DNA of 64,000 bases from Gammaproteobacteria bacterium (GCA_021773245.1 JAJFKK010000124.1:31336-95335); one strand, 5' to 3'; counted from the first letter of the stretch, positions 6,011 through 56,480 are shown. Translations and numbers: made by a program. The notes: a model not told the origin generated them from the sequence alone.

Positions 6011-6035
6011 AGAACCCCCTTTAACAATTTTATTT

Positions 6036-7511
6036 TTAGGCTAATCTTTTACGTTCATTTGAAGGCGGAATAGCCATGGCCTCTCTGTATTTTGCTACAG
6101 TTCTTCGTGCTACATTAATCCCTTGTTCTTCCAATATGGCAGCTATTTTACTGTCACTTAATGGTTTTTGTGGTGTTTCAGCGGCGACTAATTTTTTTAT
6201 CAGTGCGCGAATAGCCGTTGACGAACAGGCGCCACCATAACTTGTACTAACATGACTGGAGAAAAAATATTTTAATTCAAATATTCCCCGAGGTGTATGC
6301 ATATATTTACGAGTCGTTACACGCGAGATAGTTGATTCATGCATGCCTAACGTTTCGGCAACATCATGCAGCACTAAAGGCTTCATTGCTTCTTCTCCAT
6401 AGTCGAGAAAAGCCCGTTGTCTTTCTACAATACAGGTTGTTACGCGCAATAATGTTTCACTTCGGCTACGCAGGCTTTTTATAAACCATCGTGCTTCCTG
6501 TAAATGGGATTTAAGTGAATTGTTGTCGTCACTATTGTCAGCGCGACGAATCATATTGGCGTATGAAGAATTTATTTTTAGACTGGGCATAGAATCAGTA
6601 TTTAAATCAACTTTCCAAACCCCTTTTACCTTTTTAACATAAACATCAGGCACCACATATTCGGTACGCGCTACGCTAACTTGGTTTCCCGGCCTAGGGT
6701 TCATGGATTGAATTAAAGCAACTACTTCTGTTAATTCTTCCTTGTCCAATTTCATTTTGCGCATGAGTTGGTTGTAATCATGGCCGGCCAGTAAGTCGAG
6801 ATAATTATTGACCAGGTTTTTTGCTTCATCCAGCCAAACGGTTTCTTTGTCACATTGTTTTAACTGAAGACTTAAACATTCTTTTATATCCCTTGAAGCA
6901 ACACCGATAGGATCCATGGATTGAATCATTCTTAAAACAGCTTCGACTTCTTCTGCGCCAATTTCTTCTTCTTCCAGATCATTGTCGTCGATAGCAGCGA
7001 GAATATCTTCAAGTGACTCAGTTAAATAGCCATCATCATCGAGTGAGTCAACGATAGTCATGGCGATAATCTTGTCCGTATCTGACGTTGGTGTCAGGTT
7101 AAGTTGCCATTCCAGATGTTCGCGTAATGTTTTTTCTTTTGAATCCTGATTTTCAAAACCATCGTAGCTACTGTCAGAGCCTGTTTTTGTAAAACTAGGC
7201 GTGCTGTCATAAACATCGTCCCAGCCACTATCAACGGCAAGTTCATCCGGCATCGTGTCCTGGTTCATTTCCGTGACTTGATCGGCTTGCTCATCAGACT
7301 CTTTCTTTAGCTTTGTTTCTTCTGCTTTGCCAGGGCTTTCTTCCGATGTACTTTGTGCGTCATCGACTTCCAGCATCATATTTGATTCGAGTGCATCTTG
7401 AACTTCAGCTTGTAGTTCAATGCTTGATAACTGCAACAAGCGGATAGCCTGTTGTAGTTGTGGTGTCATCGTTAGGCTTTGGCCTATTTTTAATTGTAAT
7501 GATGCTTTCAT
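6036..7511 (-). CDS. rpoN: RNA polymerase sigma-54 factor
   Basis: 491 aa. Gln-rich N-terminus, acidic region, and C-terminal RpoN box [10 protein letters not shown]. Confidence 0.95.
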
Positions 7512-7568: not shown

Positions 7569-8294
7569 TTAAAGTGAAAACTCGTCTCCCAAATAAACTT
7601 CCCTAACTTTATCATTATTTAAAATTTGTTCTGTAGATCCTTCGGCAAGAATCTTGCCATCATGTACTACATAAGCACGATCACAGATACCTAGCGTTTC
7701 TCGAACATTATGATCAGTGATTAATATGCCGATTCCATGGTCGCAGAGGCGATGGATTAATCGTTGTATGTCATTGATTGAAATAGGGTCTATGCCCGCG
7801 AAAGGCTCATCCAGCAACAAAAAACGAGGTTCAGAAGCTAATGCTCTGGCGATTTCCAGTCGTCGGCGCTCACCACCAGAAAGGCTCATGCCGAGGTTGT
7901 CTCGTAGGTGAGTAATGTGGAATTCCTGTAGTAATAATTCCAGACGTTGTTTTGCTTTATCGCGGTCATTTGGCAAACGAGTTTCGAGTATCGCCATAAT
8001 ATTTTCTTCAACCGTCAATTTTCTGAACACGGATGCTTCTTGCGGCAGGTAGCCTAAGCCGAGGTGAGAACGCTCATCCATTGATAAACGGCTGATTTCA
8101 CGATTATCCAGATGAATAGTGCCGTTATCTGATGGTACAAGGCCGACAATCATATAAAAACTGGTTGTTTTGCCGGCACCGTTGGCTCCTAATAAACCAA
8201 TTGTTTCTCCACTTTGAACGCTTAGGCTGACATCAGAAACGACCTTTCTTGACCGATAAGACTTGGATAGATGACGTACGGATAAAATGCTCAT
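7569..8294 (-). CDS. lptB: LPS export ABC transporter ATPase LptB
   Basis: Near-collinear with E. coli LptB: Walker [10 protein letters not shown], signature LSGGERRR, C-terminus VYLGDEF. Confidence 0.95.
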
Positions 8295-8386
8295 GGCAAT
8301 ATGTCTTAAAACAGATTAGCAAATAACACTAATGGGCCGTTCAGTGATACACCTTATAATTAGTTAGATACAAAAGTTTAGATCCT

Positions 8387-8965
8387 TTATTGCTGCTTTT
8401 TCTTTTTAATTATTATTTTAACACGACCATCATTTTTCTTGTTGGTCTCGCCATCGTTAGCCTTCGTTGTTCTGGTCGAGCCTTTTGCTATTACCTTGCT
8501 AAGTACGGTGTCATATTCTATGCGTTTGCCACTCATTCGAGAGCCGTTTGGTTTTGTTACTAACGCCTTTTCTTTCAGGATAATGTAATCCTTAAGTGCA
8601 TAATACTCCATTTGTAATGCTTCGGCCTCATCATATGTTTCACTGTCATCGGGCAGCTGTCGATAGGTTGCCGGTTTGCCTTGCATGATTACCAGTTCCA
8701 TATCGCCACTCTCTGCAAAATGCACCGTCATAGTGTGCCCCGTCATTCGGATGCTACCTTGCGTTACTACAACGTCGCCACGGTATGTTGTCACGCCCTT
8801 TAGATCGTCCATTTCAGCTGAATCTGCTTCTATTTCGATATCTTTTTGTTTGTCAGTCGATAAAGCGAACACTGTATTCATCATTAAGATGAAAGTAGCG
8901 CCTAAAATAAATTTTAGAGTTATATTAAGGCGCTGGCGCACTTGATTCGATAGTTGTCTGTACAT
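8387..8965 (-). CDS. lptA: LPS transport periplasmic protein LptA
   Basis: OstA-like fold with VTTYRGDVVVTQGSIRMTG. Start chosen at Met17 (MYRQLS..., signal peptide) rather than the track start at 9013. Confidence 0.8.
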   Translation of the reverse strand: MYRQLSNQVRQRLNITLKFILGATFILMMNTVFALSTDKQKDIEIEADSAEMDDLKGVTTYRGDVVVTQGSIRMTGHTMTVHFAESGDMELVIMQGKPATYRQLPDDSETYDEAEALQMEYYALKDYIILKEKALVTKPNGSRMSGKRIEYDTVLSKVIAKGSTRTTKANDGETNKKNDGRVKIIIKKKKQQ

Positions 8966-9500
8966 TGTTAAGAAACTCCATTCGTTGTTCTTGTAAATAT
9001 GCGCGCATTCCAATAGAAGTTGTGGTTGATTTTTTACTAATTAACGTCGCCGCTTTATCGGTTTCAGCATATTTTTGATCAACTAATACACGTGCATCTT
9101 CGGTTATTAATTCAAGTTTAAGTTTTCCATCATCATCATTTTGATGAAGATAGACATTGCCGTTTAATAAAATAACGTCATTATTTGATGTTACCCAACC
9201 GGTATCGGACTTAACATTGATAGGCGGTTTATCTTTGCGAAAAATTTTTAATTCTGGCTCGTGCAATTCCGATGTGTTGTCGTCAGGGTAATGTGCCATA
9301 TAAACAGCATTTAAACGATTCTTTGGTGTGCCATCCTGATTCATCGTTAAAGTGGTGAAATTTTCCAAATAGTAATCCGGATAATGAGCCAACTTACTTA
9401 ATTTAGTTGCATCATCATCACTGAGTTTGTCTAAAGCCCAATAACTGAAAGCAGCGATAATGACGAGAATAAGTGCTAGTTGCCATCTACCTGTGAACAT
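8925..9500 (-). CDS. lptC: LPS export system protein LptC
   Basis: 191 aa with N-terminal TM anchor. Position between kdsC and lptA. Confidence 0.75.
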   Translation of the reverse strand: MFTGRWQLALILVIIAAFSYWALDKLSDDDATKLSKLAHYPDYYLENFTTLTMNQDGTPKNRLNAVYMAHYPDDNTSELHEPELKIFRKDKPPINVKSDTGWVTSNNDVILLNGNVYLHQNDDDGKLKLELITEDARVLVDQKYAETDKAATLISKKSTTTSIGMRAYLQEQRMEFLNNVQTTIESSAPAP

Positions 9501-9534
9501 AATTATTTTCTAAATTTGCTCAGACAAGATAAGC

Positions 9535-10065
9535 TCAGGATAGGTACGCTTTAATGCGTTCGTCAAATTTGCCTTGGGCTTTCATAATAAATTCACATAC
9601 TTCTCTAACGGCCCCTTGTCCACCTTGATCTTCAGTTACCCAGTTTGCATGTTCTTTTACTTCGGGTCTGGCATCAGCTACAGCAATAGCCAGCCCTACT
9701 TTTGTCATAGCAGGCAAGTCGATAACATCATCACCAACGTAGGCAATTTGCTCTCGTGCCAGCCCTAGCTCTTCAATGAGTTTCATTAACCTTGCGCCTT
9801 TGTCTTTTTCGCCTTGATAAACATATTTGATACCAAGAGACTCCATTCGTTCAGCAACAATTTTTGACGAGCGTGCTGTGATCACAGCAATATTACAACC
9901 TGACTCAAGTAGCATAACCAAACCATGCCCATCTCGCACATGAAATGACTTATATTCATTACCACTTTCGCCCAAAATAAGTTTGCCATCAGTTAAGACG
10001 CCATCGACATCAAATACAGCAAGTTTAACGTGGCTTGCTTTTTCCATTAGCGCTTTCTTGTCCAT
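9535..10065 (-). CDS. kdsC: KDO 8-phosphate phosphatase (HAD family)
   Basis: AVFDVDGVLTDG and GDDVIDLP HAD motifs. Confidence 0.9.
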   Translation of the reverse strand: MDKKALMEKASHVKLAVFDVDGVLTDGKLILGESGNEYKSFHVRDGHGLVMLLESGCNIAVITARSSKIVAERMESLGIKYVYQGEKDKGARLMKLIEELGLAREQIAYVGDDVIDLPAMTKVGLAIAVADARPEVKEHANWVTEDQGGQGAVREVCEFIMKAQGKFDERIKAYLS

Positions 10066-11048
10066 TAGACTACGCGAGCTCGTAATAAATCATGCATATT
10101 TAAAATACCTATTAATCTATTTTCGTCATTAACAACGACTAGCGCATTAATGCTATGTGATTCCATCAGCGCAAGCGCTGAAGCAGCAAGTGAATCGGCA
10201 GTGATGCTTTTTCCATCTTTTGTCATTACATCTTTAACGAGACAAGTTTTTACATCAATGCTTGAGTCGAGTGCTCGTCGCAAATCACCATCAGTAAAAA
10301 TGCCTAAAACATTATCATCATCATCAAGAATAGTTGTTATGCCTAAGCCTTTTTGCGTCATCTCAATGAGTGCTTCACTAAGCAAGGCTTGTTCAGAAAC
10401 TTTGGGAATGCCATCTCCAGTATGCATAATTTCACTAACATGCAGTAATAAACGCCGACCTAATGTTCCGCCAGGATGAGATAAAGCAAAATCGTTTTCA
10501 CTAAAGCCGCGTGCTTCAAGTAAAGCAATCGCGATTGCATCGCCCATCGCCAACGTTGCTGTTGTGCTTGCTGTTGGAGCAAGACCAAGTGGGCATGCTT
10601 CTTTGTTTACGCTCACATCAATATTAACCGTTGCTGATTTTGCCAATGTTGATTCGGAATTACCGGTTAGTGCGATCATTGGAGTGTTTAATCTTTTAAT
10701 GACGGGCAATAAAGCGATTACTTCATCTGTTTCCCCAGAATTGGATAGCACCATAACAATATCTTTACTGGTGATCATGCCCGAGTCACCATGACTGGCT
10801 TCGCCGGGATGAACAAAAAAAGCAGGGGTGCCAGTACTTGCTAAGGTTGCCGCAATTTTATTACCGATGTGTCCTGATTTGCCCATACCAATGACAATGA
10901 CACGTCCGTCACATTTGAGTATTTCATTACAAGCAGCAACAAACTTTTCATCAATACGATCAATTAAGCCTGCAAGTGCTGATTGCTCGGTTTTTATAAC
11001 CGCTTTTCCTAGCGTTTTAAGTTTGTCAGAACTAATTATTTCATTCAT
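10065..11048 (-). CDS. kdsD: Arabinose-5-phosphate isomerase (SIS plus tandem CBS)
   Basis: SIS domain GMGKSGHIG followed by CBS pair. Conserved position. Confidence 0.9.
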   Translation of the reverse strand: MNEIISSDKLKTLGKAVIKTEQSALAGLIDRIDEKFVAACNEILKCDGRVIVIGMGKSGHIGNKIAATLASTGTPAFFVHPGEASHGDSGMITSKDIVMVLSNSGETDEVIALLPVIKRLNTPMIALTGNSESTLAKSATVNIDVSVNKEACPLGLAPTASTTATLAMGDAIAIALLEARGFSENDFALSHPGGTLGRRLLLHVSEIMHTGDGIPKVSEQALLSEALIEMTQKGLGITTILDDDDNVLGIFTDGDLRRALDSSIDVKTCLVKDVMTKDGKSITADSLAASALALMESHSINALVVVNDENRLIGILNMHDLLRARVV

Positions 11049-33163: not shown

Positions 33164-33239
33164 GGGCCGTTAGCTCAGCCGGTAGAGCAGTGGATTTTTA
33201 ATCCATTGGTCGGGCGTTCGAATCGCCCACGGCCCACCA
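33164..33239 (+). tRNA. tRNA-Lys (anticodon TTT)
   Basis: 76-nt cloverleaf GGGCCGTTAGCTCAGCCGGTAGAGCAG..., anticodon loop TTTTTAA, T-arm GTTCGAATC, 3' CCA encoded. Confidence 0.9.
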
Positions 33240-40263: not shown

Positions 40264-41529
40264 ATGGCAGTGCCCAAGAATGCATTTTATGCTCAGTCTG
40301 GTGGAGTAACGGCTGTTATCAACGCTAGTGCCTGTGGTCTGATTGAGACAGCAAGAAAACATAGGGACAAGATCGCAAATGTTTATGCAGGTCGTAACGG
40401 TATTATTGGTGCATTAACCGAAGACTTAATTGATACGAACCTTGAATCAGAAGCAGATATTGCTGCGCTTCGTCATACGCCGTCCGGAGCATTTGGGTCT
40501 TGTCGTTACAAGCTTAAAGGTTTGGAAGAAAACAAGGCAGAATATGAGCGTTTGATTGAAGTTTTCAAAGCGCATGATATAGGCTATTTCTTTTATAACG
40601 GCGGCGGGGATTCAGCTGACACCTGCCATAAGATTTCTCAAATTTCAGAGAAAATGGGTTTCCCTATTCAAGCGGTTCATGTTCCTAAAACGGTAGATAA
40701 TGACTTACCGATCACCGATGTTTGCCCGGGTTTCGGTTCAGTTGCCAAATATATTGCGATATCCACTCGTGAAGCGTCATTCGATGTTTGTTCGATGGCA
40801 AAAACATCAACAAAAGTATTCGTGCTCGAAGTGATGGGTCGTCATGCTGGCTGGATTGCTGCCGCTGGTGGATTAGCAGCTGATGCCGACAATGATATTC
40901 CTGTCGTTATTCTTTTTCCTGAAGTGGAGTTTAATCAAGAAGCATTCATTGCAAAGGTCAAAGAAAAAATAGAACAATATGGTTATTGCTCTATTGTTGT
41001 TTCAGAAGGCGCCCATTGGTCTGATGGAAAATTTTTAGCTGAACAAGGTACGCGAGATGCATTTGGTCATGCTCAGTTAGGTGGTGCAGCGCCGGTAGTT
41101 GCTAATATGGTTAAGGATGCCTTGGGACATAAGTTTCATTGGGCAGTTGCAGATTATTTGCAACGGGCAGCCAGACATATCGCTTCAAAGACCGATGTTG
41201 AACAAGCATATGCGTTGGGAAAGGCCGCAGTTGAAATGGCAATAGCTGGAGAAAATGCGGTTATGCCAACGATTGATAGAAAATCAGACGTTCCTTATGT
41301 ATGGGAAATTGGTAAAGCAAAATTGGAAAACGTCGCCAATGTTGAAAAAATGATGCCTAAAGATTTTATTACCGAAGATGGTTTTGGTATTACTGAAGCG
41401 TGTCGTCGTTACCTTGCACCATTGATAGAAGGTGAAGACTATCCTCCTTATGAAAATGGTTTGCCTAAATATGTAACATTAAAAAATAATCCCGTAGATA
41501 AAATTCTAAATACAGCGTTTGAGCTTTAG
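40264..41529 (+). CDS. pfp: Pyrophosphate-dependent 6-phosphofructokinase
   Basis: 421 aa. PFK fold with GGDGS-like NGGGDS and the long-type PPi-PFK architecture. Confidence 0.85.
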   Translation: MAVPKNAFYAQSGGVTAVINASACGLIETARKHRDKIANVYAGRNGIIGALTEDLIDTNLESEADIAALRHTPSGAFGSCRYKLKGLEENKAEYERLIEVFKAHDIGYFFYNGGGDSADTCHKISQISEKMGFPIQAVHVPKTVDNDLPITDVCPGFGSVAKYIAISTREASFDVCSMAKTSTKVFVLEVMGRHAGWIAAAGGLAADADNDIPVVILFPEVEFNQEAFIAKVKEKIEQYGYCSIVVSEGAHWSDGKFLAEQGTRDAFGHAQLGGAAPVVANMVKDALGHKFHWAVADYLQRAARHIASKTDVEQAYALGKAAVEMAIAGENAVMPTIDRKSDVPYVWEIGKAKLENVANVEKMMPKDFITEDGFGITEACRRYLAPLIEGEDYPPYENGLPKYVTLKNNPVDKILNTAFEL

Positions 41530-44090: not shown

Positions 44091-45338
44091 ATGGCTGATA
44101 GTTTAATTGGGGAAATCATCGCCTGTCACGAGTGCGATAACCTGCATCATTATGAATTGATCCCTGTTGGTGCAAAAGCCAATTGCCTGCACTGTGGAAA
44201 TTTATTATATAGACACGTTCCCGATTCTATAAACCGAACTTTAGCCTTATATCTTACTGCTCTATTCCTTTTTATTATTGCTAATACCTTTCCTTTTCTT
44301 TCTCTTGAGCTAGGTGGCCGGGTAGTTGAGAATATTTTATTTTCCAGTGGTTGGGCGATGTATGAGTTAGGTATGGGTGAATTAGGCGTCCTTATTTTTT
44401 TAACGAGTATTTTGTTTCCGTTAATTGTTATTGTTGGCATGCTCTATTTATTAATACCTGCAAGTTTAGGGAAAGTTGCACCACATATGGGACAAGTCTA
44501 CCGTATTATCAATGCATTACTTCCCTGGAGTTTGATTGGTGTGTTTATGCTGGGTGTGTTGATAGGCATTGTTAAACTACAAGATCTGGCTAATGTCATT
44601 TTCGGCCCTGCAATTATTGCCTTAGCCTTATTATTGCTTGTCTATACTGCGGCGAGGGCAAGTTTTAATCCTCATGAATTATGGTCATTAACCGAACATA
44701 CATCGTTGGACCTTTCCAGTGATGAACTAGCGAATAAAAATATTATCAATTGTCATACTTGTGGTTTTCTTAGCCTCGAATCAGGTGAACATCAACATTG
44801 CTTACGATGTGATTCACAATTACATCATAGAATAAATAACAGTGTTGAAACGACATGGGCATTATTAATTTCAGCAGTTGTACTTCTAATACCAGCAAAT
44901 CTTTATCCGGTAATGACGGTGATACGTTTTGGTCAGGGCGAACCAAATACGATTTTGAGTGGTGTCCTGCATTTAATCGAATCTGGCATGTGGGGTTTGG
45001 CGATGATTGTATTTGTTGCCAGCATTGTCGTTCCAGTAACGAAATTAATTATTTTGAGTTTTTTATTAATTAGTGTTCAAAAAAAATCAGTTTGGCGTCC
45101 GCGCGACCGAACCTTGCTTTATCGTGTGACGGAAGTAGTTGGTGCCTGGTCTATGGTTGATATTTTTCTGGTTGGCTTGTTATCCGCATTAGTAAGTTTG
45201 GGTGCTTTATCAACAATACGTCCGGGAGTTGGTGCAATTTTCTTTGCCGGAGCAGTAGTAGTGACGATGTTTGCCGCGCAAAGTTTTGATTCGCGCCTGA
45301 TTTGGGATAATGTTAGGGAAAAAGAAACTGAAAATTAG
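44091..45338 (+). CDS. pqiA: Intermembrane transport protein PqiA
   Basis: Two PqiA repeats, each beginning with a CxxC...CxxC zinc-ribbon-like motif, and 8 TM. Confidence 0.85.
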   Translation: MADSLIGEIIACHECDNLHHYELIPVGAKANCLHCGNLLYRHVPDSINRTLALYLTALFLFIIANTFPFLSLELGGRVVENILFSSGWAMYELGMGELGVLIFLTSILFPLIVIVGMLYLLIPASLGKVAPHMGQVYRIINALLPWSLIGVFMLGVLIGIVKLQDLANVIFGPAIIALALLLLVYTAARASFNPHELWSLTEHTSLDLSSDELANKNIINCHTCGFLSLESGEHQHCLRCDSQLHHRINNSVETTWALLISAVVLLIPANLYPVMTVIRFGQGEPNTILSGVLHLIESGMWGLAMIVFVASIVVPVTKLIILSFLLISVQKKSVWRPRDRTLLYRVTEVVGAWSMVDIFLVGLLSALVSLGALSTIRPGVGAIFFAGAVVVTMFAAQSFDSRLIWDNVREKETEN

Positions 45339-45340
45339 AA

Positions 45341-47035
45341 ATGGAAATCTCAAGCCCAAAAGTTAGCAAACGTTCTGGCCCTTCTGTTGTCTGGATAATT
45401 CCATTCCTTACTTTGCTTGTCGGTGGCTGGCTAATAGTAAAAACGCTCTCCGAACAAGGCCCGCAGGCGAGTATTAGTTTTAAAACGGCGGAAGGCATTG
45501 AAGTAGGCAAGACTAAAATCAAATATAAGAGTGTTGATATTGGTGTTGTTGAACATATTAAATTTAGTGATGATTTTTCTAATGTCATTTTAACTGCGGA
45601 ATTTAGTCAAGGATCAGAGAAGTTCTTGCATCGCGGTACTCGCTTTTGGGTGGTTAAACCTCAACTTGGGTTACAAGGCGCGTCTGGATTGAGCACTTTA
45701 ATATCCGGCGCTTATATTGAAATTGAACCAGGGCCCGGTGCTCAACAACGGCATTTTATCGGTTTAGAAAAGCAACCTGTCATTAAAGCCGATGAACAGG
45801 GAAAGGAGATTGTATTAATTACGAATAAACTTGGTTCAATAGATCGAGGCTCGCCTATTTATTTTCAAGGTTTGCTAGCTGGTGAAGTTCTTGGTCATGA
45901 ACTCGGCAATGATCAGAAGAGTGTTTACATTCATGCTTTTATTAAAGATCCGTTTGATCAACTAATTCGTGGTAATACTAATTTTTGGAATGTTAGCGGT
46001 ATTAATGTCTCAATGAGTGCGGATGGCTTTAAAGTAAAAACCGAATCACTTCGCTCTATGATGTTTGGCGGTATCGCGTTTGATACACCGGAAACACTAG
46101 AGTTAGTCACGACTGATGTTGATAACCTGGTTTTTACTTTGCATGATAGTTTTGAAGCGATTCAGGAAAACTCTTATACCCGAAAGCTTAAGTTTATTAT
46201 GTTCTTTGACAGTTCAGTCCGTGGCTTAACTATTGGTGCGCCGGTTGAGTTTAAAGGTATTAAAGTTGGCTCTGTACTCGATGTTAGACTTGAATTTGAT
46301 AGTGATGACACATCATTTCGTATTCCAGTATTAATTGAAATTGAACTACAACGAATTATTGAACGTGGAAATGAAGATAGTGGTTCGACATATGAAACAT
46401 TGGGTAAATTAGTTGAGCGTGGACTTCGTGCGCGTTTGCAAACAGGGAGTTTGTTGACCAGCCAATTGTATGTTGAATTGGATATGCATCCTGATTCTCC
46501 CATCAATATTAGTGGTGAAGAAACAGCATTCCCAGAATTACCGACTTTACCAACAGCTAATTTTGGCGCAATAACTCAATCTGCTGAAAAATTATTGGCG
46601 AAACTAAATGCAATTGATATTGATAATGTTTCAACTGTATTACTTGAAACAATAACTAATGCAAATAGCACGTTGCAGATTGCAGACGAAACAATCACCA
46701 ACGCTAATGCGTTAATTACTTTACCAGGCATTCCGACGGCAATAGAAGATATGCAAGCTTCATTAAGTAATTTTAAAAATATAATGCAGAAAATAGATGC
46801 TTCTAATATTACAGAGGCGATCGATGCCGGTCATCTTGCTCTGGAAAGTTTAACCGTTACATTAGGTAAAACGAATAATATTTTAGAACCAAATTCACCG
46901 GCACAATATAACTTGATAAAACTAACTGGTGAACTTGAAGAGACCGCACGTTCAATACGATCATTGGTCGAGACTTTGGAGCGCAATCCGCAAGCTTTAA
47001 TTTTTGGCAAGGATAAAAAGGCCAAAGGAGAATAA
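45341..47035 (+). CDS. pqiB: Intermembrane transport protein PqiB (triple MCE domains)
   Basis: 564 aa, N-terminal TM, three MCE-like domains, C-terminal helical needle. Confidence 0.85.
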   Translation: MEISSPKVSKRSGPSVVWIIPFLTLLVGGWLIVKTLSEQGPQASISFKTAEGIEVGKTKIKYKSVDIGVVEHIKFSDDFSNVILTAEFSQGSEKFLHRGTRFWVVKPQLGLQGASGLSTLISGAYIEIEPGPGAQQRHFIGLEKQPVIKADEQGKEIVLITNKLGSIDRGSPIYFQGLLAGEVLGHELGNDQKSVYIHAFIKDPFDQLIRGNTNFWNVSGINVSMSADGFKVKTESLRSMMFGGIAFDTPETLELVTTDVDNLVFTLHDSFEAIQENSYTRKLKFIMFFDSSVRGLTIGAPVEFKGIKVGSVLDVRLEFDSDDTSFRIPVLIEIELQRIIERGNEDSGSTYETLGKLVERGLRARLQTGSLLTSQLYVELDMHPDSPINISGEETAFPELPTLPTANFGAITQSAEKLLAKLNAIDIDNVSTVLLETITNANSTLQIADETITNANALITLPGIPTAIEDMQASLSNFKNIMQKIDASNITEAIDAGHLALESLTVTLGKTNNILEPNSPAQYNLIKLTGELEETARSIRSLVETLERNPQALIFGKDKKAKGE

Positions 47036-47655: not shown

Positions 47656-48586
47656 AAAACTAACTGGGAAAGTTATACAAAATTTAACAATGAAACTCCG
47701 GTCTCAACAAAACACGGTTATCGTTGCACTTATGACTTCATGTCTATTTGTACAGAATAGTTTTGCTTTAATAAGTGAAGAAACTAGTGGCATTGAAATA
47801 ATGGAAGAAGTACAAAAACGACATCAGCAATTTCCTTATATTTATGAAGAACAGTCTATGGTTATGGAAGATAGACATGGTAAACGTGATACACGTAAAG
47901 CCAGACGTTATTCAAGAATGGAAGAAGATGGTTCGGTAAAGTTTCTTTTATTATTTGATTATCCAAAGGAAGTAAAAGGTGTTGCCTTGTTAGCTAATCG
48001 TGACGCGAATGGTAATACAAATAAATATATCTATTTGCCTGCATTAGGTGAACAGCTAATCGAAAGTACGGGTGAAGGAAGTAATGACAATTTTCTCGGC
48101 ACTGATTTTTCAGTTGAAAATTTAACAGGTGAAATACTTATTGAACATGCTTATGTTCGACGTAATGATAAAGAAATTAAAGGTATAAAATATTTTGTGA
48201 TTGATGTTTATAGTGCAAATGGACTCATGTCAGAAAAACAAGTTTTAAGACGACACTTTATTCAACAAGACAATCTATACATTACTCTTACTCATCATTT
48301 TGATAAGCAAGGTCGAGTTTCACGTATACAAAGTCACCATGATCTCAAGCCCGTTGATGGTGATATGTGGCGTGCTAACATGATTCTTATGGTAGATAAG
48401 AGAGAACGACATCAATCATTAATAAAAATATCAAAGCGAATTTTTTCGCATGATTATGTTCCGGCTGAAGTTTTTACCGCTAAGTGGTTATATGAAAATT
48501 ATCCTTATATTGAATCTCCGGATAATTCAGATGTTGAAGAAGATTCGGTAGTGTCGAACGAGACAACAGAGGAAAATGCAGAATGA
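47636..48586 (+). CDS. LolA-like outer-membrane lipoprotein-sorting family protein (partner of MMPL exporters)
   Basis: Signal peptide (likely true start near 47690, MKLRSQQ...). About 260-aa LolA-like periplasmic domain. Overlaps the downstream MMPL gene by 4 bp. Confidence 0.6.
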   Translation: MPKKIIRKLTGKVIQNLTMKLRSQQNTVIVALMTSCLFVQNSFALISEETSGIEIMEEVQKRHQQFPYIYEEQSMVMEDRHGKRDTRKARRYSRMEEDGSVKFLLLFDYPKEVKGVALLANRDANGNTNKYIYLPALGEQLIESTGEGSNDNFLGTDFSVENLTGEILIEHAYVRRNDKEIKGIKYFVIDVYSANGLMSEKQVLRRHFIQQDNLYITLTHHFDKQGRVSRIQSHHDLKPVDGDMWRANMILMVDKRERHQSLIKISKRIFSHDYVPAEVFTAKWLYENYPYIESPDNSDVEEDSVVSNETTEENAE

Positions 48587-51318
48587 TCGTAAAAATGTGT
48601 CTATTGGGTTATAAGCATCGTGTTCCAGTGACACTATTGTTGCTACTTGTAACCTTGTTTTCTCTTTTTGGCATGCAACGTTTACAAGTTGATACCGGTA
48701 TAGATAGTTTAATTCCTGCTGATGATCCTGCACGCCAGGTTTATCAAAGAGTCATGGGTGAATTTGGTACAGATAATAAAACCATTATCTATATTAAGGA
48801 TAAGAATTTATGGACGCCAGAAAAACTGACTCGAATTGAACAGCTACATCTGGCGGTAGAAAAAATTGAAGGAGTTACTCGAGTTGATAGCTTATTCAGC
48901 TTACATACGATTCATGGTGATGATGGTAAAATTGTTTCACGACCTGTATTACGATCTGCACCAAAAACAGAGGAAGATGCACTAAGTGCAAAAGAAAGCG
49001 CATTAGCTAACCCACTTTATCTTGGAAATTATTTCTCAAATGATGGTGAAGTAACAGCAATGATAGTTTCTGTTGCTGATGTAGAAGATAAAAATGATTT
49101 TAGTCGAACTATCTATCAAGCACTAGAAGATCAAATTGAAGTTCATCGTTCCGAGTTTAACCGCCTTACACAGGTTGGGCCACCAAGAATTAATGCTGAA
49201 TTAAAGCAGAGTCTTTATGAAGATTTCTTATTACTAGGGCCGTTGTCTGCCTTAATTCTGGTTCTGTCTATTTTAATATTTATGCGTAGTTGGTTATCTG
49301 CGATGGTGCCATTAGTAACGTCGTTGATAACTATTATCTGGACTTTTGGTCTATTAGGCTGGTTAGGTATTCCACTTAATATACTCAGCGCAATGATACC
49401 TTCATTAATTATTGTCATAGGATCAACCGAAGATACGCATTTGATGGCTGCATTTTTACGTGGTCTTGATGAAGATGTTGAAGGAGACTCTCGTCAGCAT
49501 GCGGTTAAATACATGGCAAAACATATTGGTTTGCCATTGGTTCTTACCGTGTTAACAACGGCAATGGGTTTTGCCAGTAATCTTTTTAGTAATATTGAGT
49601 TGATTCAACATTTCTCAATTGCGGCAACTTTCGCTATGTTGGCAAATGGTTTTATTACGGTGCTGGTTTTACCATTGATGCTGTCTTTGTTTGCTCCTGA
49701 TAAAAACATCAGTCTCGTTAAAGACAAGAATACAAAAAGTGTTCCTAATCGGATAATGAAATTATTTCGTTATTCTCAAGATCATTTTCCTTTGTCGACG
49801 TTGCTAGTAACCGCGGTCTTATGCATATTTTTTGTTATGCAGGCAGCCAAGTTATATGTCACAAATGATCCGCTTTCTTATTTTCCAAGCGATCGTCCAT
49901 TAATACAGGATGTTAAACAAATTCATGAAGATCTTGCTGGCGTAAAAATATTCTTTATATCGCTTGAATCTAAACAAGCTAAAGCATTTCAAGATCCAAA
50001 AAATATTAAAAAATTATCTGCGATACAGGAATTTCTTGATAGTCAGGGCGCTTATGATCGCACGATATCTTTAGCCGATCACTTGAAGTTTATGAATCGC
50101 GAATTTCGTAACACTTCTGTTGAGGGCTCTATCCCTGAAACGCGACAATTAGTTGCTCAGTACCTGATGTTTTTTCATCGTAGTGATTTGGATAGTTATG
50201 TCAGCCATGATTACAGTCGTGCCAATATTGTTGTACGTCATAACATTACGGACTCGCATACACTTAACCAATATATTGAAGAACTGGAAAGTGTTTTGGA
50301 GCAAATTGTTGGTCCAGATATGAGATCTTATATTGTTGGTGAAAATCTAATGGTAAATCACGCCGCTGAAAGTTTAATGGTGGAGCAAGTAAAAGCATTG
50401 GTTTTACTGATGACATTAATTTTCTTGATCATGTCGGCAATGTTTACTTCTTTTAAAGGTGGTTTTATTTCACTGGTACCAGCTATTATTCCAATTACCT
50501 TAATGTTTGGCATCATGGGCTTTCTTGATATTCCATTAAATCCGGGCACGGCGATGGTCGCCGTAATCGCAATTGGTATTGCAATTGATGGCACGATTCA
50601 TCTATTAGCGAGATACAATGAGCTTTGTCGTCGCACCTCTGATTATGTTGAGGCAGTTAATACGGCTGTGCAAGAAGAGGCCACGCCGCTTATTGTCTCG
50701 AGCATTGCACTTGCATTTGGATTTGGAATTTTAATCTTTTCAAATTTTACTATTGTTGCACAGTTTGGCGCTTTGGCTGCAGCAACAATGTTATTTTCTA
50801 TCTTTGCTAATCTTTTGATTACGCCGATAATAATGTCACGTATTCGCTTGATTGGTCTTTATCAAATTTTGGCAATGTCAGTCGATCGTGAAGTTCTTGA
50901 CGGTAGTCCGTTATTACAAAACATGACCAACTATCAGCGGCGTAAAGCAATTCTAATATCAGAACTACATGAATTTGAAAAAGGAGAATTACTTGTAGAG
51001 CAGGATACAATTGGTCGAGATATGTATCTTATACTTTCTGGTGAAGTAGAAGTAATTCGAAAAGATGATGGTGAATCTCGTTCATTGGCTGTTTTGAAAC
51101 CGGGACAAATTTTTGGTGAGATTGGTTATATTCGTGAAACTGAAAGAACAGCGGATGTATTAGCGCTAGAGAATGTTTCAGCCTTACGTTTTGACTATGA
51201 ACGTATGCAAAAAGACTTAAAGTTTTTTCCAAATATTGTTGCTAAGCTAAATTTCAATATTAGTTATATCCTCGGTAAACGCTTGGCAGATATGGTCGGT
51301 AGCTCGAAAAGTAAATAA
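48583..51318 (+). CDS. MMPL/RND-superfamily exporter (COG1033-like, 12 TM, two periplasmic loops) fused to a C-terminal cyclic-nucleotide-binding (CAP-type) domain
   Basis: 911 aa. Two 6-TM bundles with SSD-like cores. C-terminal about 135 aa (approximately 50905-51315) carries FGEIGYI...RTADV, the hallmark cNMP-binding beta-roll/phosphate-binding cassette. Confidence 0.8.
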   Translation: MIVKMCLLGYKHRVPVTLLLLLVTLFSLFGMQRLQVDTGIDSLIPADDPARQVYQRVMGEFGTDNKTIIYIKDKNLWTPEKLTRIEQLHLAVEKIEGVTRVDSLFSLHTIHGDDGKIVSRPVLRSAPKTEEDALSAKESALANPLYLGNYFSNDGEVTAMIVSVADVEDKNDFSRTIYQALEDQIEVHRSEFNRLTQVGPPRINAELKQSLYEDFLLLGPLSALILVLSILIFMRSWLSAMVPLVTSLITIIWTFGLLGWLGIPLNILSAMIPSLIIVIGSTEDTHLMAAFLRGLDEDVEGDSRQHAVKYMAKHIGLPLVLTVLTTAMGFASNLFSNIELIQHFSIAATFAMLANGFITVLVLPLMLSLFAPDKNISLVKDKNTKSVPNRIMKLFRYSQDHFPLSTLLVTAVLCIFFVMQAAKLYVTNDPLSYFPSDRPLIQDVKQIHEDLAGVKIFFISLESKQAKAFQDPKNIKKLSAIQEFLDSQGAYDRTISLADHLKFMNREFRNTSVEGSIPETRQLVAQYLMFFHRSDLDSYVSHDYSRANIVVRHNITDSHTLNQYIEELESVLEQIVGPDMRSYIVGENLMVNHAAESLMVEQVKALVLLMTLIFLIMSAMFTSFKGGFISLVPAIIPITLMFGIMGFLDIPLNPGTAMVAVIAIGIAIDGTIHLLARYNELCRRTSDYVEAVNTAVQEEATPLIVSSIALAFGFGILIFSNFTIVAQFGALAAATMLFSIFANLLITPIIMSRIRLIGLYQILAMSVDREVLDGSPLLQNMTNYQRRKAILISELHEFEKGELLVEQDTIGRDMYLILSGEVEVIRKDDGESRSLAVLKPGQIFGEIGYIRETERTADVLALENVSALRFDYERMQKDLKFFPNIVAKLNFNISYILGKRLADMVGSSKSK

Positions 51319-51433: not shown

Positions 51434-52066
51434 TTGGTTAATAAAATGAAATCAGTTATTAAAAAAAATATTATCTTATTGATTATTCTTTTATCAGCAG
51501 GACATACAGGGTTCGCATTTTCAGAAACAAGGGGAAAAGAGCTTTTCCCTGATAATATTATTGTTGAATATAATAATGAAAAATTAGATTTGTCATTGAC
51601 GGGTATAGCTATTCGAAAGAAATTTTTTCTAAAAATTTATAGGATGGCTCATTATCTTGAACAGAACTCCAGAATGTCATTCAAAAATAATGAGATCTAT
51701 TCATCTATATTGCAACATAGTGGTGCAAAGCAAATCTCGATGGTTTTTCTGCGGTCCTTGGCGGCGAAGCAGATTCAGGACTCCTTGATAACGGGTCTTA
51801 AATTGAATATGAAAGAAGAAGATTATTTGCAAATTCTGCCTAATGTCGAGATTTTCATGCGTGCGATCTATGAAGATGTTAAAGAAAACGATGAATTTGT
51901 CATTCGATGGCATCCTGATGGTACAATGGTCTCACTTTTTCAGGGTAAAGAGATCAGTTCAATCAAGGATGAGAACTTTGCCAAAGCGTTATGGTCTATC
52001 TGGTTTGGTGATTTCTCAGTCGTAGATCGCGATTTACTTATAAAAGAACTGTTAACTAGTTCCTAA
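51434..52066 (+). CDS. Chalcone-isomerase-like (fatty-acid-binding) family secreted protein
   Basis: Signal peptide and LTGIAIRKKFFLKIYRMAHYLE, typical of bacterial CHI-like domain proteins. Confidence 0.55.
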   Translation: MVNKMKSVIKKNIILLIILLSAGHTGFAFSETRGKELFPDNIIVEYNNEKLDLSLTGIAIRKKFFLKIYRMAHYLEQNSRMSFKNNEIYSSILQHSGAKQISMVFLRSLAAKQIQDSLITGLKLNMKEEDYLQILPNVEIFMRAIYEDVKENDEFVIRWHPDGTMVSLFQGKEISSIKDENFAKALWSIWFGDFSVVDRDLLIKELLTSS

Positions 52067-52195
52067 ATTGTTTTAGTGAGTTTGTAAATAATTCTTTATA
52101 ATTTCCTGAGAAGGTTTATATTCCTGAATTCATTTCCTGATAGTTGCCATCCTGTCAAGATAATCAAAGAGTTACGTAAATTAAGAACATATTAG

Positions 52196-53005
52196 ATGAA
52201 AATTATTAAAGGTGAACTAAGCCACGGGCGATTTATTGTCCCATATCGAATTTATGGCGAAGCGAAGAAGACGATTGTTTGTATTAGTGGTGCAAAACAG
52301 ACAATGGCAGCTTGGCGTTCATTTGTTAGTCACTTCGTTTCCGAATACTCAGTCGTATTATTTGATATGCCTGGTCAAGGTAGAGCCTCAATTTTATCTG
52401 GTTCTTTAGGCATTACTTTCGATGAGCAAGTTGATGTTTTATATAATATTATTAATGAAACTAATCGAAATGGTACGGTTATATTAGCGGCAGCATCATG
52501 GGGAACAATTATCTCTGCAGCGATTGCAGCGCGTTACCCTGAATTAGTCGATAAAATGATCCTGGGTAGTTTTGGAGCTAAACCAAGCAAAGCGGTCATT
52601 GATATTATTAAAGCAGGACAAGGTTTGTTTAATGGTGATAAAACTGAACAGATTGCGCCTTTAATGATAGAAAAATTTGGTCAACATATTCCTGCCACTC
52701 AGAAAAAACAGATGATCGACCAATTTCGAGATATGAGTCGAGAACAGTTTGTCAGTTTTTACGAACATTGTGAATTTGTCGAAAAAGCATCTGATATTGA
52801 AGAATATATAGAATTAGGCAAGATTACAGCTTCGACGCTTATTTTGAGCGGTGAATATGATGCGATTCTTGATCAGGACGATATTGAAAAAGCGTCATCA
52901 AAGATTCCTGACTGTGAGTATAAAATGATTCCAGGTGCGGGGCATTTTTTACATTGGGAGCAATCAGACATTCTTTATACTTATAGCGAGTTCCTTTCCA
53001 GATAA
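52196..53005 (+). CDS. Alpha/beta-hydrolase fold protein
   Basis: Nucleophile elbow AASWG and C-terminal GAGHFLHWE His region. Confidence 0.7.
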   Translation: MKIIKGELSHGRFIVPYRIYGEAKKTIVCISGAKQTMAAWRSFVSHFVSEYSVVLFDMPGQGRASILSGSLGITFDEQVDVLYNIINETNRNGTVILAAASWGTIISAAIAARYPELVDKMILGSFGAKPSKAVIDIIKAGQGLFNGDKTEQIAPLMIEKFGQHIPATQKKQMIDQFRDMSREQFVSFYEHCEFVEKASDIEEYIELGKITASTLILSGEYDAILDQDDIEKASSKIPDCEYKMIPGAGHFLHWEQSDILYTYSEFLSR

Positions 53006-53007
53006 GA

Positions 53008-53856
53008 TTGTCAATGTCTATTAAGCTTTCACCTGTTGATAAAGTTTCGTCTATCGAACAGGAATCATTTCTTGCTTCATATTATAAACCTTTAAAGCCT
53101 GTTGTTATTCAGGAACCTTCAAAACCATGGCCGGCATTTAAAAAGTGGACTCCGGAATTCTTTAAAGAGCAGCATGGTAACAAACAAGTCAAAGTTTATG
53201 ACGGCAGTTTTGTTGTGGCTGGAAAGAATTATATGTCTAATGCAAAAACTATATCTTTTAAAAAGTATATTGATTTAGTAATGACGACTTCACAAGATCT
53301 TCGTATGTTTCTCTACAATATTAAATCAGAAATTCCAGAGTTAGTTGATGATATTAATTTTCCAACATTAATTAATAATGTTTCAAAAAGTTTTGTATTT
53401 ATGTTTTTCGGTTGTAAAAATTCAGTAACACAAATGCATTTTGATATTGATATGTCGCATGTTTTCCATACAGCGATACGTGGCCGAAAAACAGTTTATT
53501 TATTTCCTTATGAAGAGTCTAAAAACCTACACCGCTATCCGTTTACCTGTAGAAGTTATGTTGATGTTGAAAAACCGGATTTTGAAAAATACCCCGGGTT
53601 GAGAAAAGCACAAGGCTATAAGGTTCAGCTTGAAGCAGGCGAGACCTTATATATTCCGAGCGGTTATTGGCATCACTTTGTTTATGATGAAGCAGCTTAT
53701 GCAATATCGCTTCGATGTGCTAATCAGACATTGTTGGGTAAAGTTCATGGCTTTTATAATTTAATCATAATGCAAAGCATTGATCGTATAATGAATAAAA
53801 TCTTTCCGAAGAATTGGTTTGAGTGGAAAGAGGAACAAGCGTTAAAAGCTAATTAA
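53008..53856 (+). CDS. JmjC/cupin-8-like Fe(II)/2-oxoglutarate oxygenase-fold protein
   Basis: HFDID...H...HHF putative HxD/E...H facial triad in a cupin fold. 2 bp after the hydrolase gene. Confidence 0.6.
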   Translation: MSMSIKLSPVDKVSSIEQESFLASYYKPLKPVVIQEPSKPWPAFKKWTPEFFKEQHGNKQVKVYDGSFVVAGKNYMSNAKTISFKKYIDLVMTTSQDLRMFLYNIKSEIPELVDDINFPTLINNVSKSFVFMFFGCKNSVTQMHFDIDMSHVFHTAIRGRKTVYLFPYEESKNLHRYPFTCRSYVDVEKPDFEKYPGLRKAQGYKVQLEAGETLYIPSGYWHHFVYDEAAYAISLRCANQTLLGKVHGFYNLIIMQSIDRIMNKIFPKNWFEWKEEQALKAN

Positions 53857-54440: not shown

Positions 54441-56480
54441 CTAAACTAACAATGGAGCAATCACTAAACTAACAATTGCCATTACATTAATCAGAATGTT
54501 CATTGCTGGACCAGAGGTATCCTTTAATGGATCACCAACGGTATCACCAACAACAACAGCAGCATGAAGATCTGTTCCTTTGCCACCAAGGTTACCTTTT
54601 TCAACATACTTCTTAGCGTTGTCCCAGGCACCACCCGCGTTTGCCATCATCAGTGCCATCATCACACAACAGATTAATGCGCCGCCCAACATGCCGCCTA
54701 AAGCTTGTGGACCAAGACCGAAGCCAACGACAACAGGAGCAAGTACCGCTAGTGAACCCGGAGCAATCATGCGTTTTAATGCAGCACGAGTTGCAATATC
54801 AATACAACGTGCATTATCAGGTTGTGCTGTACCTTCCATTAAACCAGGGATTTCTTTGAATTGGCGACGTATTTCCTTAATCATTTCAAAAGCCGCATCA
54901 CCAACCGCTGTCATGGTCATAGAGCTAACCAGGAATGGAAAAATACCGCCAAGGAACATGCCGCAAAGAACAATTGGATCATCAATTCTTAAGATAAGCT
55001 CTTCGCTTCCTCCAGATGCTTCATGTAAGGCTAGAGACACTTTCTCAATATAAGCACTGATTAATGCCAGCGCTGCAAGTGCAGCCGCACCAATAGCAAA
55101 GCCCTTACCGATTGCAGCAGTAGTATTTCCTACTTCATCAAGTGAATCAGTAATCTCACGTGTCTCTTTACCCATCCCAGACATTTCCGCAATACCACCG
55201 GCGTTATCTGCAACGGGGCCATACGCGTCAATTGCCATGGTAATGCCAACAGTACTCAACATACCAACAGCTGCAATACCAACACCGTAAAGACCAGCAT
55301 AATGACTCGCTGTAAAGATAATGGCGCAGATTGTAATAACAGGGATAGCTACCGATTGCATGCCTATTGCTAGACCACTAATCATCACGGTAGCAGGTCC
55401 TGTTTCACCGTCTTTTGCAATCTTTCTGACTGGAGCACCGCCGGTGTAATACTCGGTGACAAGGCCGATAACAATACCGCCTAAAGCACCTGAAATTACA
55501 GCTATCCAAACATTGGTAGAAGCTCCCATGTAACAAATCAATACATATGCAGCGATGATAAAAATAATAGAAGAACCCATCGTACCAATACGTAATGCTG
55601 TTTCAGGGCTTTTTGATGAAAAAAGTTTTACTGAGTAAATACCTATCATCGAACAAATCAAACCAACAGAAGCAAGGGCTAATGGCATAAAGGTTAATGT
55701 GCCTGTATCGCCTTCAGGTGCTAAGTTAGCTACTTCGGCTAAAGTCATCGTAGCTGCTAGAGCAATCGTTGCGATCATCGCACCACAATATGATTCAAAA
55801 ATATCAGAACCCATACCGGCAACGTCACCGACATTATCACCAACGTTATCTGCAATAACGCCAGGGTTACGTGGGTCATCTTCTGGGATGCCCGCTTCAA
55901 TCTTACCAACCAAATCAGCACCGACGTCAGCACACTTGGTAAAAATACCGCCACCAACACGTGAGAACAAAGCAACTGAAGATGCGCCCATAGCGAAACC
56001 TTCAATAGCGTGAATAGTATGTGTATCACCTGCGAAGAAATAGTAAAGAATACCAACACCAAATAAGCCCATTGCTGCAACTGTTAGTCCCATAATAGAA
56101 CCACCGAAGAATGCAATGTTTAAGGCTTCAGCTGCACCTTTGGTGTTCGCAGCAACCGCTGTTCTAACGTTAGCGTGAGTTGCGGTATACATGCCCCAAT
56201 AGCCCGCTGAACCTGAGCATACTGCACCAAGTAAAAAGGCCAATGCGGTATTCATACCTAAATCAGACATAGCAATCGCAGTAATACAAACTACGCAAAA
56301 TATAGCTAAACGTTTATATTCGCTGTTCATAAAGACCATTGCGCCTAAATGGATAGCATCAGAAATTTCTTTTAATTTTCCCTCACCGGCAGGTGATTTT
56401 TTAATACTGACAAAAACTAGAAAAGCGGCAAAAAGGCCGAATATGCCCAAACCAATGGGTATAAAAGCAATTGAATTCAT
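54441..56480 (-). CDS. hppA: Membrane-bound proton/sodium-translocating pyrophosphatase
   Basis: 679 aa, about 16 TM, with conserved DVGADLVGK and [11 protein letters not shown] motifs. Confidence 0.95.

Follow-up and report, generated by a model that had tools for sequence, protein, structure and literature searches.

A conserved RND/MMPL-type transporter with a built-in cyclic nucleotide-binding domain, encoded downstream of pqiABC and a lolA-like gene

The locus described here lies in a stretch of 64,000 nucleotides from Gammaproteobacteria bacterium (GCA_021773245.1 JAJFKK010000124.1:31336-95335). This whole stretch is called the window, and positions are counted from its first letter. 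Five consecutive genes on one strand encode PqiA, PqiB, a PqiC-like lipoprotein, a LolA-like periplasmic protein and a protein that joins an RND/MMPL-type transporter body to a C-terminal cyclic nucleotide-binding domain (CNBD). The last of these, RND::CNBD, is the subject of this analysis. The features of the locus are collected in Table 1, together with the transmembrane (TM) helices and domains located on an AlphaFold2 (AF2) model, whose confidence is given as the predicted local distance difference test (pLDDT).

Table 1. Features of the locus and related loci. Nucleotides are positions in the window unless preceded by a locus handle; residues are those of RND::CNBD.
Feature	Nucleotides	Residues (aa)	Strand	Basis
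pqiA, 415 aa, first gene of the block	44091..45338		+	Pfam PqiA 2.6e-91, two stretches
pqiB, 564 aa, three MlaD/MCE stretches	45341..47035		+	Pfam MlaD 1.1e-32
pqiC-like lipoprotein, 204 aa	47041..47655		+	Pfam ABC_trans_aux 9.2e-28
LolA_like / TP_0789-like periplasmic protein	47690..48586		+	Pfam LolA_like (PF17131) 4.4e-22
ATGA stop/start overlap, LolA_like / RND::CNBD	48583..48586		+	Sequence
RND::CNBD fusion protein, 911 aa	48583..51318		+	Open reading frame, Pfam, NCBIfam, homologue searches, AF2
RND body	48583..50835	1-751	+	AF2, pLDDT mostly 87-97; Foldseek
TM1		13-31		AF2
Periplasmic domain 1		32-199		AF2
TM2-6		200-370		AF2
Cytoplasmic linker		371-402		AF2, pLDDT 65-67, poorly conserved
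TM7		403-421		AF2
Periplasmic domain 2		422-586		AF2
TM8-12		587-751		AF2
TM4 motif G280-S-T-E283-D284-T-H286, GxxxD-type	49420..49440	280-286	+	Orthologue and family alignment
TM10 motif G665-I-A-I-D669-G-T671-I-H673, second half of pseudo-symmetric relay	50575..50601	665-673	+	Alignments
Juxtamembrane linker, conserved R755-L-(V/I)-(T/G)-L-(W/Y)-(D/Q)	50836..50892	752-770	+	AF2, family alignment
CNBD	50893..51297	about 771-911 (nucleotides cover 771-905)	+	PF00027, PDB sequence matches, AF2
Phosphate-binding cassette F844-G-E846-IGYIRETE-R855-T856-A857-DV	51112..51159	844-859	+	Alignments
Chalcone_3 protein, signal peptide by inspection	51434/51446-52066		+	Pfam
Alpha/beta hydrolase	52196-53005		+	Pfam
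Cupin_8/JmjC-type putative hydroxylase	53008-53856		+	Pfam
RND-CNBD-GGDEF loci	L062 622-9249; L066 3783-6923; L068 2863-6045

The reading frame of RND::CNBD has exactly the extent, strand and length given for it in an earlier note on this DNA, which had read it as an RND/MMPL exporter fused to a CAP-type CNBD. In a Pfam scan of the product, the MMPL model matched in two stretches (4.1e-32, above the gathering score), the Sterol-sensing and Patched SSD (sterol-sensing domain) models matched at 2e-11 and 4e-11, and ACR_tran was matched as well. The cNMP_binding model (PF00027; cNMP, cyclic nucleoside monophosphate), against which the note had proposed to search the C-terminal region, matched residues 796-877 with an E-value of 3.8e-19 and 68.9 bits, compared with a gathering score of 27.5. 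Both halves of the protein have significant hidden Markov model (HMM) matches in Pfam and NCBIfam. The protein is an RND/MMPL-type transporter with a built-in CNBD, and the fusion is genuine.

Base composition is uniform over the junction of the two parts. The uninterrupted fusion, with its own stop codon, was found in more than 45 independent contigs of metagenome-assembled genomes (MAGs) from different studies, at 53-87% identity, and every full-length orthologous locus in this range carries the CNBD. Among the best 120 matches in a collection of 5.8 billion proteins, which have 70-100% identity and come from many independent contigs, the product is about 910 aa long and includes PF00027; the sole exception is a sequence annotated as partial. 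The earlier note had named a missing stop codon or an assembly chimera as what would undo its claim. No evidence was found to support such an artefact, or one caused by a frameshift, other than one short orthologue in a contig where an assembly error is probable. The artefact is refuted by the same continuous open reading frame in more than 45 assemblies, in hundreds of database proteins and in 131 distinct clusters at 50% identity, and the even composition at the junction also speaks against it, so we regard its probability as negligible. The short orthologue (P0046, 889 aa, at 8001-10670 of locus L006) stops about 22 residues early, inside the C-helix of the CNBD. L006 sits on a 2.66-Mb contig; because the name of its record ends in '_pilon', the short form is read as a likely frameshift error, with a real truncation as the possible alternative.

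An exhaustive HMMER search of 1.84 billion representatives of 50%-identity clusters gave 5823 matches at E<=1e-30. An HMM of the CNBD by itself was used to score the presence of the domain in the best 150 of these 5823 representatives. Of the 150, 131 have the domain at the C-terminus, with identity to the query as low as about 28%. The survey of fusion retention that the earlier note had suggested thus comes out in favour of the fusion, which is kept in all orthologues as well as in these 131. The other 19 representatives include truncated gene calls. Full-length non-fused representatives, placed by average-linkage clustering and nearest-neighbour analysis, are scattered among the fused ones, and their nearest neighbours are mostly fused. 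This pattern agrees with a single ancestral fusion; later cases that lack the domain would be sporadic losses or truncated calls. The carriers form at least 131 clusters, and their MAGs are labelled Gammaproteobacteria, Desulfobacterales/Thermodesulfobacteriota, Nitrospinota and Gallionellaceae. Judged from these homologues, the fusion defines a large, old family and is not a rare oddity. Annotation pipelines have already given members labels such as 'cyclic nucleotide-binding domain-containing protein' and 'predicted RND superfamily exporter protein/CRP-like cAMP-binding protein', and the architecture is thus catalogued by automated annotation but uncharacterised. A literature search for RND, MMPL or HAE3 proteins with a CNBD found no paper on this architecture, in agreement with the earlier note, whose author knew of no characterised RND or MMPL lipid exporter gated directly by cAMP, cGMP or a related ligand.

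The AF2 model of the full protein was built on a 96-sequence family alignment with a mean column identity of 34%. It has a mean pLDDT of 89.8 and a predicted template modelling score of 0.86. RND membership is seen in its topology, with 12 TM helices in two pseudo-repeats and periplasmic domains at TM1/2 and TM7/8. The 12-TM MMPL layout described in the earlier note therefore stands, but its large loop after each bundle of six helices does not, since the periplasmic domains lie between TM1 and TM2 and between TM7 and TM8. When the model was compared with the PDB using Foldseek, the body matched MmpL4/5, MmpL3, HpnN, NPC1/NPC1L1, Patched and Dispatched with E-values from 1e-26 to 1e-18. The TM-score, normalised to the target, was about 0.8 for MmpL4/5 and about 0.75-0.81 for the MmpL set overall. 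The best of these matches, to MmpL4/5 and MmpL3, cover about 790 aligned columns, which correspond to the RND body. Among the Foldseek PDB targets listed, no match extends over the CNBD, and no target is an RND protein with such a domain.

GxxxD-type motifs are typical of the charge relays in RND/SSD proteins, and such motifs are present in TM4 and TM10. The TM4 motif is invariant in 17 orthologues, and among the 96 sequences of the family alignment its G, E, D and H are found in 91, 81, 84 and 84, respectively. The TM10 motif is also invariant among orthologues, with family counts of 88 (G), 87 (D), 91 (T) and 92 (H). These charged motifs are consistent with an active ion-coupled transporter.

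The best full-length match in NCBIfam is TIGR00921 (HAE3), which aligns residues 13-751 to profile positions 4-731 and scores 219.5 bits compared with a curated cutoff of 351.9. Scores for the HpnN models are 51.5 compared with 1100 (NF052374) and 110.4 compared with 751.85 (TIGR03480). TIGR00833 (MmpL/actII) scores 123.4 compared with 874.7, so the likeness to MmpL proteins is structural only. The Patched, BstA and SecDF models of NCBIfam gave weak partial matches only. Because the scores fall below the curated cutoffs, the protein is not filed in HAE3, HpnN or MmpL; it is called HAE3/MMPL-like and placed in no characterised subfamily.

The CNBD is separated from the last TM helix by a juxtamembrane linker (pLDDT 72-82) with short helices at residues 759-764 and 769-774. 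With 12 TM helices the C-terminus is cytoplasmic, and the domain therefore lies where cNMPs occur. In the AF2 model (pLDDT 84-90), it consists of alpha-A (783-792), an eight-strand beta-roll (794-871), alpha-B (872-881) and an alpha-C of 28 residues (883-910). Its sequence matches in the PDB are PKG, PKA-R, SthK and CRP at 1e-15 to 1e-10, with the SthK CNBD matching residues 762-889 at 1e-9 to 1e-10. A helix-turn-helix after the CNBD is absent, and the protein ends about 6 residues after the C-helix, so it is not classed with the CRP/FNR regulators. The CRP and FtrB models of NCBIfam match the CNBD portion only, far below their cutoffs.

The phosphate-binding cassette, FGEIGYIRETERTADV, is canonical. 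It contains the FGEIGYI...ERTADV motif to which the earlier note had pointed, now located at residues 844-859. Alignment with PKG I pairs it, position by position, with the cassettes of CNB-A (FGELAILYNCTRTATV) and CNB-B (FGEKALQGEDVRTANV). In the full-length orthologous loci, the cassette is invariant as FGE[IV]GY..RTA[DN]V. Family counts out of 96 are 96 for G820, 94 for G841, 95 for G845, 87 for E846, 90 for R855, 78 for T/S856 and 85 for A857; G845, E846 and R855 are thus each at least 90% conserved, compared with the mean column identity of 34%. Near-invariant residues in the C-helix are P883 (95), N892 (96) and R900 (89), which are candidates for a nucleotide lid or a transporter interface. 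Among orthologues, the mean identity of the CNBD is 82%, compared with 81-88% for the TM bundles and 70-75% for the periplasmic domains. In PKA, PKG and CAP, the Gly-Glu pair contacts the ribose 2'-OH, and Arg-Thr/Ser-Ala contacts the cyclic phosphate. The domain has what defines the PF00027 family at the sequence level, the cassette included, and cAMP or cGMP would be its ligand. Because Thr at the position of residue 856 is found in cGMP- and cAMP-selective domains alike, Thr856 gives no selectivity call.

The CNBD could also work without a cNMP, as a dimerisation or scaffold module or as a binder of another small molecule, which would leave the transporter outside second-messenger control. 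Some CNBD folds of the CRP/FNR superfamily are generally known to bind no ligand or a different one, a strict cassette pattern misses about 35 of the 131 fused representatives, and P883, N892 and R900 could form a protein-protein interface. However, the Gly-Glu and Arg-Thr/Ser-Ala contact residues are present, with the G, E and R conserved as above, and the best sequence matches are the true cNMP sensors PKG, PKA-R and SthK. Two distant members, described below, are also adjacent to a cyclase and a candidate phosphodiesterase. With these points on the other side, we consider a cNMP-independent CNBD improbable.

Some distant relatives have additional domains. A subclade of about 1020-1070 aa (P0165, P0170, P0197 and P0208) consists of RND-CNBD-GGDEF variants. 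No GG[DE]EF motif was found in the 11 long variants checked, and because of this their GGDEF domains look degenerate. Another variant, P0131 (1075 aa), has the order FHA-RND-CNBD, with an N-terminal FHA match at 3.8e-13. Such relatives bring up a role as a sensor or 'transceptor', in which the RND/SSD-like body would sense a membrane lipid or periplasmic ligand, as in SCAP or Patched, while a cytoplasmic hub integrates the cNMP and transport is secondary. The Sterol-sensing and Patched SSD model matches and the structural matches to NPC1 and Patched would agree with this role, as would the added FHA or GGDEF-like domains and the histidine kinases and response regulators that adjoin some of the members carrying them. 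Yet the window protein has no output domain and ends after the C-helix of its CNBD, and in the long variants the GGDEF domain has no GG[DE]EF motif. The charged motifs of TM4 and TM10 are strongly conserved. The gene also shares an operon with a lipid-transport system and is translationally coupled to the gene of the LolA-like periplasmic carrier. On this balance, a primarily sensory role appears unlikely.

The genes upstream of RND::CNBD were assigned by domain content. For pqiA, the TIGR00155 score of 282.8 bits exceeds the cutoff (260.35). NF008070 scores 478 bits for pqiB, under its cutoff of 525, and NF033620 matches the pqiC-like gene at 1.1e-9, also under its cutoff. By these models the trio is Pqi-type, but because PqiB and PqiC score under the equivalog cutoffs, its members are not certified equivalogs of the E. 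coli proteins. The LolA_like match reaches 79.1 bits compared with a gathering score of 30. The reading frame of this gene is longest with a start at TTG 47636, in which case it would overlap the pqiC end. From ATG 47690, the N-terminus reads MKLRSQQNTVIVALMTSCLFVQNSFA|LISEE, which is signal peptide-like by inspection, and this ATG is likely the start. The Cys in LMTSC near this N-terminus lies outside a canonical lipobox.

The five genes are closely packed, with 2, 5, 34 and -4 nt between pqiA, pqiB, pqiC, the LolA_like gene and RND::CNBD. A GAGGA lies about 12 nt upstream of the RND::CNBD start. A scan of the operon for promoters and terminators gave background-level counts, with no convincing internal terminator. 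Translational coupling of RND::CNBD to the LolA-like gene had been claimed on the basis of a 4-bp overlap. The overlap was verified, and it is kept, as ATGA or GTGA, in 41 of 47 orthologous loci; among the six others, four have gaps of 2-3 nt, one has -1 and one has 186 nt.

Synteny was followed by tblastn of the window proteins against 54 loci from one-genome-per-species contigs, all of them MAGs. These are labelled Gammaproteobacteria, Thiotrichaceae, Pseudomonadales, Ca. Azotimanducaceae, Nitrospinota and Desulfobacterales. The order pqiA-pqiB-pqiC-lolA-like-RND::CNBD is present in every locus with sufficient upstream flank, including the Desulfobacterales MAGs (53-56% identity), and the LolA_like gene is syntenic in all orthologous loci. 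Two independent cluster representatives have related arrangements: P0121 (52% identity) has PqiA-PqiB-LolA_like-RND::CNBD, and in P0126 (46%) the five genes are all present, their ends overlapping or abutting. The genes further out, namely those for phosphofructokinase, DsbA and SulP upstream and for Chalcone_3, alpha/beta hydrolase, Cupin_8, a UDG-family protein and the H+-translocating pyrophosphatase (H+-PPase) downstream, are common to the closest relatives only. Because the outer genes are limited in this way, the five-gene block is read as the conserved unit. The earlier note had paired the LolA-like protein with the transporter as a functional unit; the pair holds, but its extent was drawn too narrowly, since the conserved unit also takes in pqiABC. 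As judged from gene order, the five-gene block is a functional unit in this lineage.

The same block was also seen in MAGs labelled Nitrospinota or Nitrospina (L007, L008, L010-L013, L034, L042, L046 and L052), where RND::CNBD is 75-80% identical to the window protein. This implies either recent transfer of the whole block between phyla or contigs that are mis-binned or mislabelled.

The surroundings of RND::CNBD were also recorded in a sample of 12 distant members. A LolA_like/DUF1329 gene adjoins RND::CNBD in seven of them, one of which also has a DUF1302 outer-membrane protein in an AmeABCD-type arrangement. In two, the neighbours of RND::CNBD include a class III cyclase along with a candidate cNMP phosphodiesterase. 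The first, P0146 (35% identity; L057 5534-11289, also L058/L067), has a Metallophos phosphoesterase gene (261 aa) directly downstream on the same strand, then a CHASE2-Guanylate_cyc cyclase gene (740 aa), with a gene for a GAF-HD protein nearby. This locus looks like a self-contained cassette for cNMP synthesis, degradation and effector function, as far as domain matches can indicate. A homologue search found no relative of P0146 above 40% identity, and a metagenome scan gave the same contig only. The second, P0165 (on L062), has as neighbours a HisKA-RR-Guanylate_cyc cyclase, an Apyc1-like protein of the metallo-beta-lactamase fold and a hybrid histidine kinase. Genes of the cyclase class account for well under 1% of most genomes, and by a rough estimate, rather than a calculated one, two cyclase adjacencies out of 12 are more than chance would give; the observation is still anecdotal.

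Two other neighbourhoods contain biosynthetic genes. At L060 2360-8033, the strand opposite a member of 45% identity carries adjacent genes for LolA_like/DUF1329, an unknown protein of 447 aa, an aminotransferase, an acyl carrier protein, a ketosynthase and a ketoreductase. This set could be a small amino- or acyl-lipid biosynthetic cluster and a candidate source of substrate. A 31%-identity member (L061 6329-20382) has the order DUF1302-DUF1329/LolA_like-RND::CNBD, an AmeABCD-type layout, followed after about 5.5 kb by a very large polyketide synthase gene whose product exceeds 2900 aa.

Several known systems resemble parts of this one. HpnN (5KHS/5KHN) and HAE3 proteins have a 12-TM RND fold and likewise carry two periplasmic domains, as seen in the TIGR00921 and Foldseek matches, and HpnN is presumed to move lipid from the inner membrane towards the periplasm, as is proposed for RND::CNBD. 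However, HpnN has only about 14% identity to it, with scores far under the cutoffs, and lacks a CNBD, a translationally coupled LolA-like partner and Pqi linkage. The mycobacterial MmpL4, MmpL5 and MmpL3, exporters of lipids and siderophores, are the best structural matches to the body, yet have 12-16% identity. MmpL3 also has a C-terminal cytoplasmic domain, and in MmpL proteins the cytoplasmic face or C-terminus binds partners, with MmpL5-AcpM complexes among the PDB entries listed. The cytoplasmic addition is a small-molecule sensor in RND::CNBD and a protein-docking region in MmpL, and the periplasmic partner is LolA-like in the former and MmpS in the latter.

Precedents for a C-terminal CNBD after a membrane domain are the CNBD-gated channels (MlotiK1, SthK, HCN and CNG), which likewise have the domain in the cytoplasm, a short linker after the last TM helix and a canonical cassette. 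These are tetrameric pore-loop channels in which a gate is controlled, whereas coupling in RND::CNBD would act on a transport cycle. For the control of a membrane transport protein by a cNMP, they are the clearest precedent in terms of mechanism. TIGR03896 (cyc_nuc_ocin, bacteriocin-type transport-associated) also ties a CNBD to export and matches residues 803-906 at 2.2e-10, but it belongs to ABC-type bacteriocin export, not RND, and scores 40 compared with a cutoff of 161. The E. coli PqiABC genes have the same pqiA-pqiB-pqiC order, whereas here the trio runs directly into lolA-like and RND::CNBD. No report of pqiABC linked with lolA-like and RND genes was found in the literature.

LolA-like proteins and HAE3-type RNDs have been described together in AmeABCD of Castellaniella defragrans, a proposed exporter of hydrophobic molecules (PMC6394551), and in ApeL/ApeM(/ApeN) of aryl-polyene clusters, for which hydrophobic export is also proposed (PMC8253772). 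The pairing of an RND with a LolA-superfamily periplasmic protein, sometimes with DUF1302, recurs in the neighbours of distant RND::CNBD members. The RNDs of AmeABCD and ApeL/ApeM differ in having about 790 aa, with no cytoplasmic sensor described in the papers, and no Pqi genes. AmeABCD is the only LolA-like-associated HAE3 pump with experimental data, and these tie it to monoterpene tolerance (PMC6394551). RND::CNBD could accordingly be an AmeD-type efflux pump for solvents or xenobiotics, or an importer of hydrophobic nutrients, with cAMP reporting carbon status and the link to Pqi reduced to co-regulation; genes for lipases, enoyl-CoA hydratases or beta-oxidation are neighbours of some distant members. 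Against such a role, the strict synteny with pqiABC spans divergent lineages, the tight overlaps of all five P0126 genes argue for one machine, and the best structural matches are lipid transporters. We consider efflux or uptake of this kind quite unlikely.

The rest of the window is ordinary core chromosome of about 37% GC and even composition, with rpoN/ptsN/hprK/rapZ, lptB, kdsD, Tol-Pal, ruvB, aspS, nadA, and genes for phosphofructokinase, SulP and the H+-PPase. A horizontally acquired island was rejected on this gene content and composition. Among named relatives, the nearest are MAGs that carry the label Thiotrichaceae or Gammaproteobacteria. Directly downstream of RND::CNBD and outside the conserved block, the Chalcone_3, hydrolase and Cupin_8 trio (51434..53856) is present only in L002, L003, L004, L006, L024 and L051. 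Chalcone_3 is chalcone-isomerase-like, a fold used by plant fatty-acid-binding proteins, and the trio may be a lineage-specific accessory set that modifies or binds lipids. The region is flanked by genes for a 421-aa phosphofructokinase (40264-41529) and a membrane H+-PPase (54441-56480). Judged by its size, the phosphofructokinase may be pyrophosphate-dependent, and the two together hint at a pyrophosphate-based energy economy in the organism. At 3355-7511, hprK (HPr kinase/phosphorylase) and rapZ lie by the gene for sigma-54, which is a regulatory cluster of the PTS-Ntr type. A tRNA gene at 33164-33236 is the sole Rfam match in the window.

We lean, with some confidence, towards the reading that RND::CNBD is a transporter of a hydrophobic envelope component that is driven by the proton-motive force, tuned by a cNMP, and works with the LolA-like carrier and PqiABC. 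The resemblance of its body, in the Foldseek comparison, to the lipid-transporting MmpL4/5, MmpL3, HpnN and NPC1 supports this reading. The cargo of the HAE3/MMPL-like RND would be an envelope component, hydrophobic or amphiphilic and most likely a lipid, and the CNBD, fused about 20 residues past TM12, would sit on the cytoplasmic side. By analogy with the CNBD-gated channels, binding of cAMP or cGMP at the cassette would reposition the long C-helix. This movement could pass through the juxtamembrane linker to TM12 and the neighbouring charge relay of TM10 and TM4 and so tune the transport cycle, either by activation or by inhibition. The substrate would be handed to, or taken from, the co-translated LolA-like carrier. 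In this lineage, the transporter would act jointly with the trans-envelope MCE bridge formed by PqiABC of the same operon, and traffic of lipids between the inner and outer membranes would come under direct second-messenger control. The presence of the gene in an operon with PqiABC suggests such direct control of envelope lipid traffic.

Several observations weigh against this reading. A substrate is not transferable from HAE3, HpnN or MmpL, because the scores are below the curated cutoffs. The CNBD-fold domains of some bacterial proteins bind other ligands, and cyclase adjacency was seen in only two of 12 distant members. Searched by phmmer with the L057 and L062 neighbour proteins as probes, the 64-kb window and the 8-kb flanks of close orthologues yielded no cyclase and no phosphodiesterase, a negative result that is uninformative but also lends the reading no support. 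The FHA and degenerate-GGDEF variants also hint at signalling, over transport, as the main role. A bolder form of the reading, which we hold tentatively and regard as somewhat doubtful, is that RND::CNBD and the LolA-like protein are the energised, second-messenger-gated part of a composite PqiABC machine and would feed or empty the Pqi bridge.

To our knowledge, how the movement of lipids between the inner and outer membranes of Gram-negative bacteria is regulated and energised is an open problem, and we know of no motor, energy source or regulator for Pqi/MCE bridges. In this family, a connection between second-messenger signals and the lipid homeostasis of the envelope becomes concrete and can be tested. 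The classes of CNBD effectors so far are kinases, channels, transcription factors and guanine nucleotide exchange factors, and RND secondary transporters would join this list. The size of the family (at least 131 clusters at 50% identity) makes it tractable, and the isolated CNBD is small. Proton-flux assays exist for reconstituted RNDs such as MmpL3 (PMC9335285). If the composite Pqi machine is real, the members of the family would be the first RND transporters under direct control by a nucleotide second messenger, and the machine would be the first regulated route for phospholipid traffic between the inner and outer membranes.

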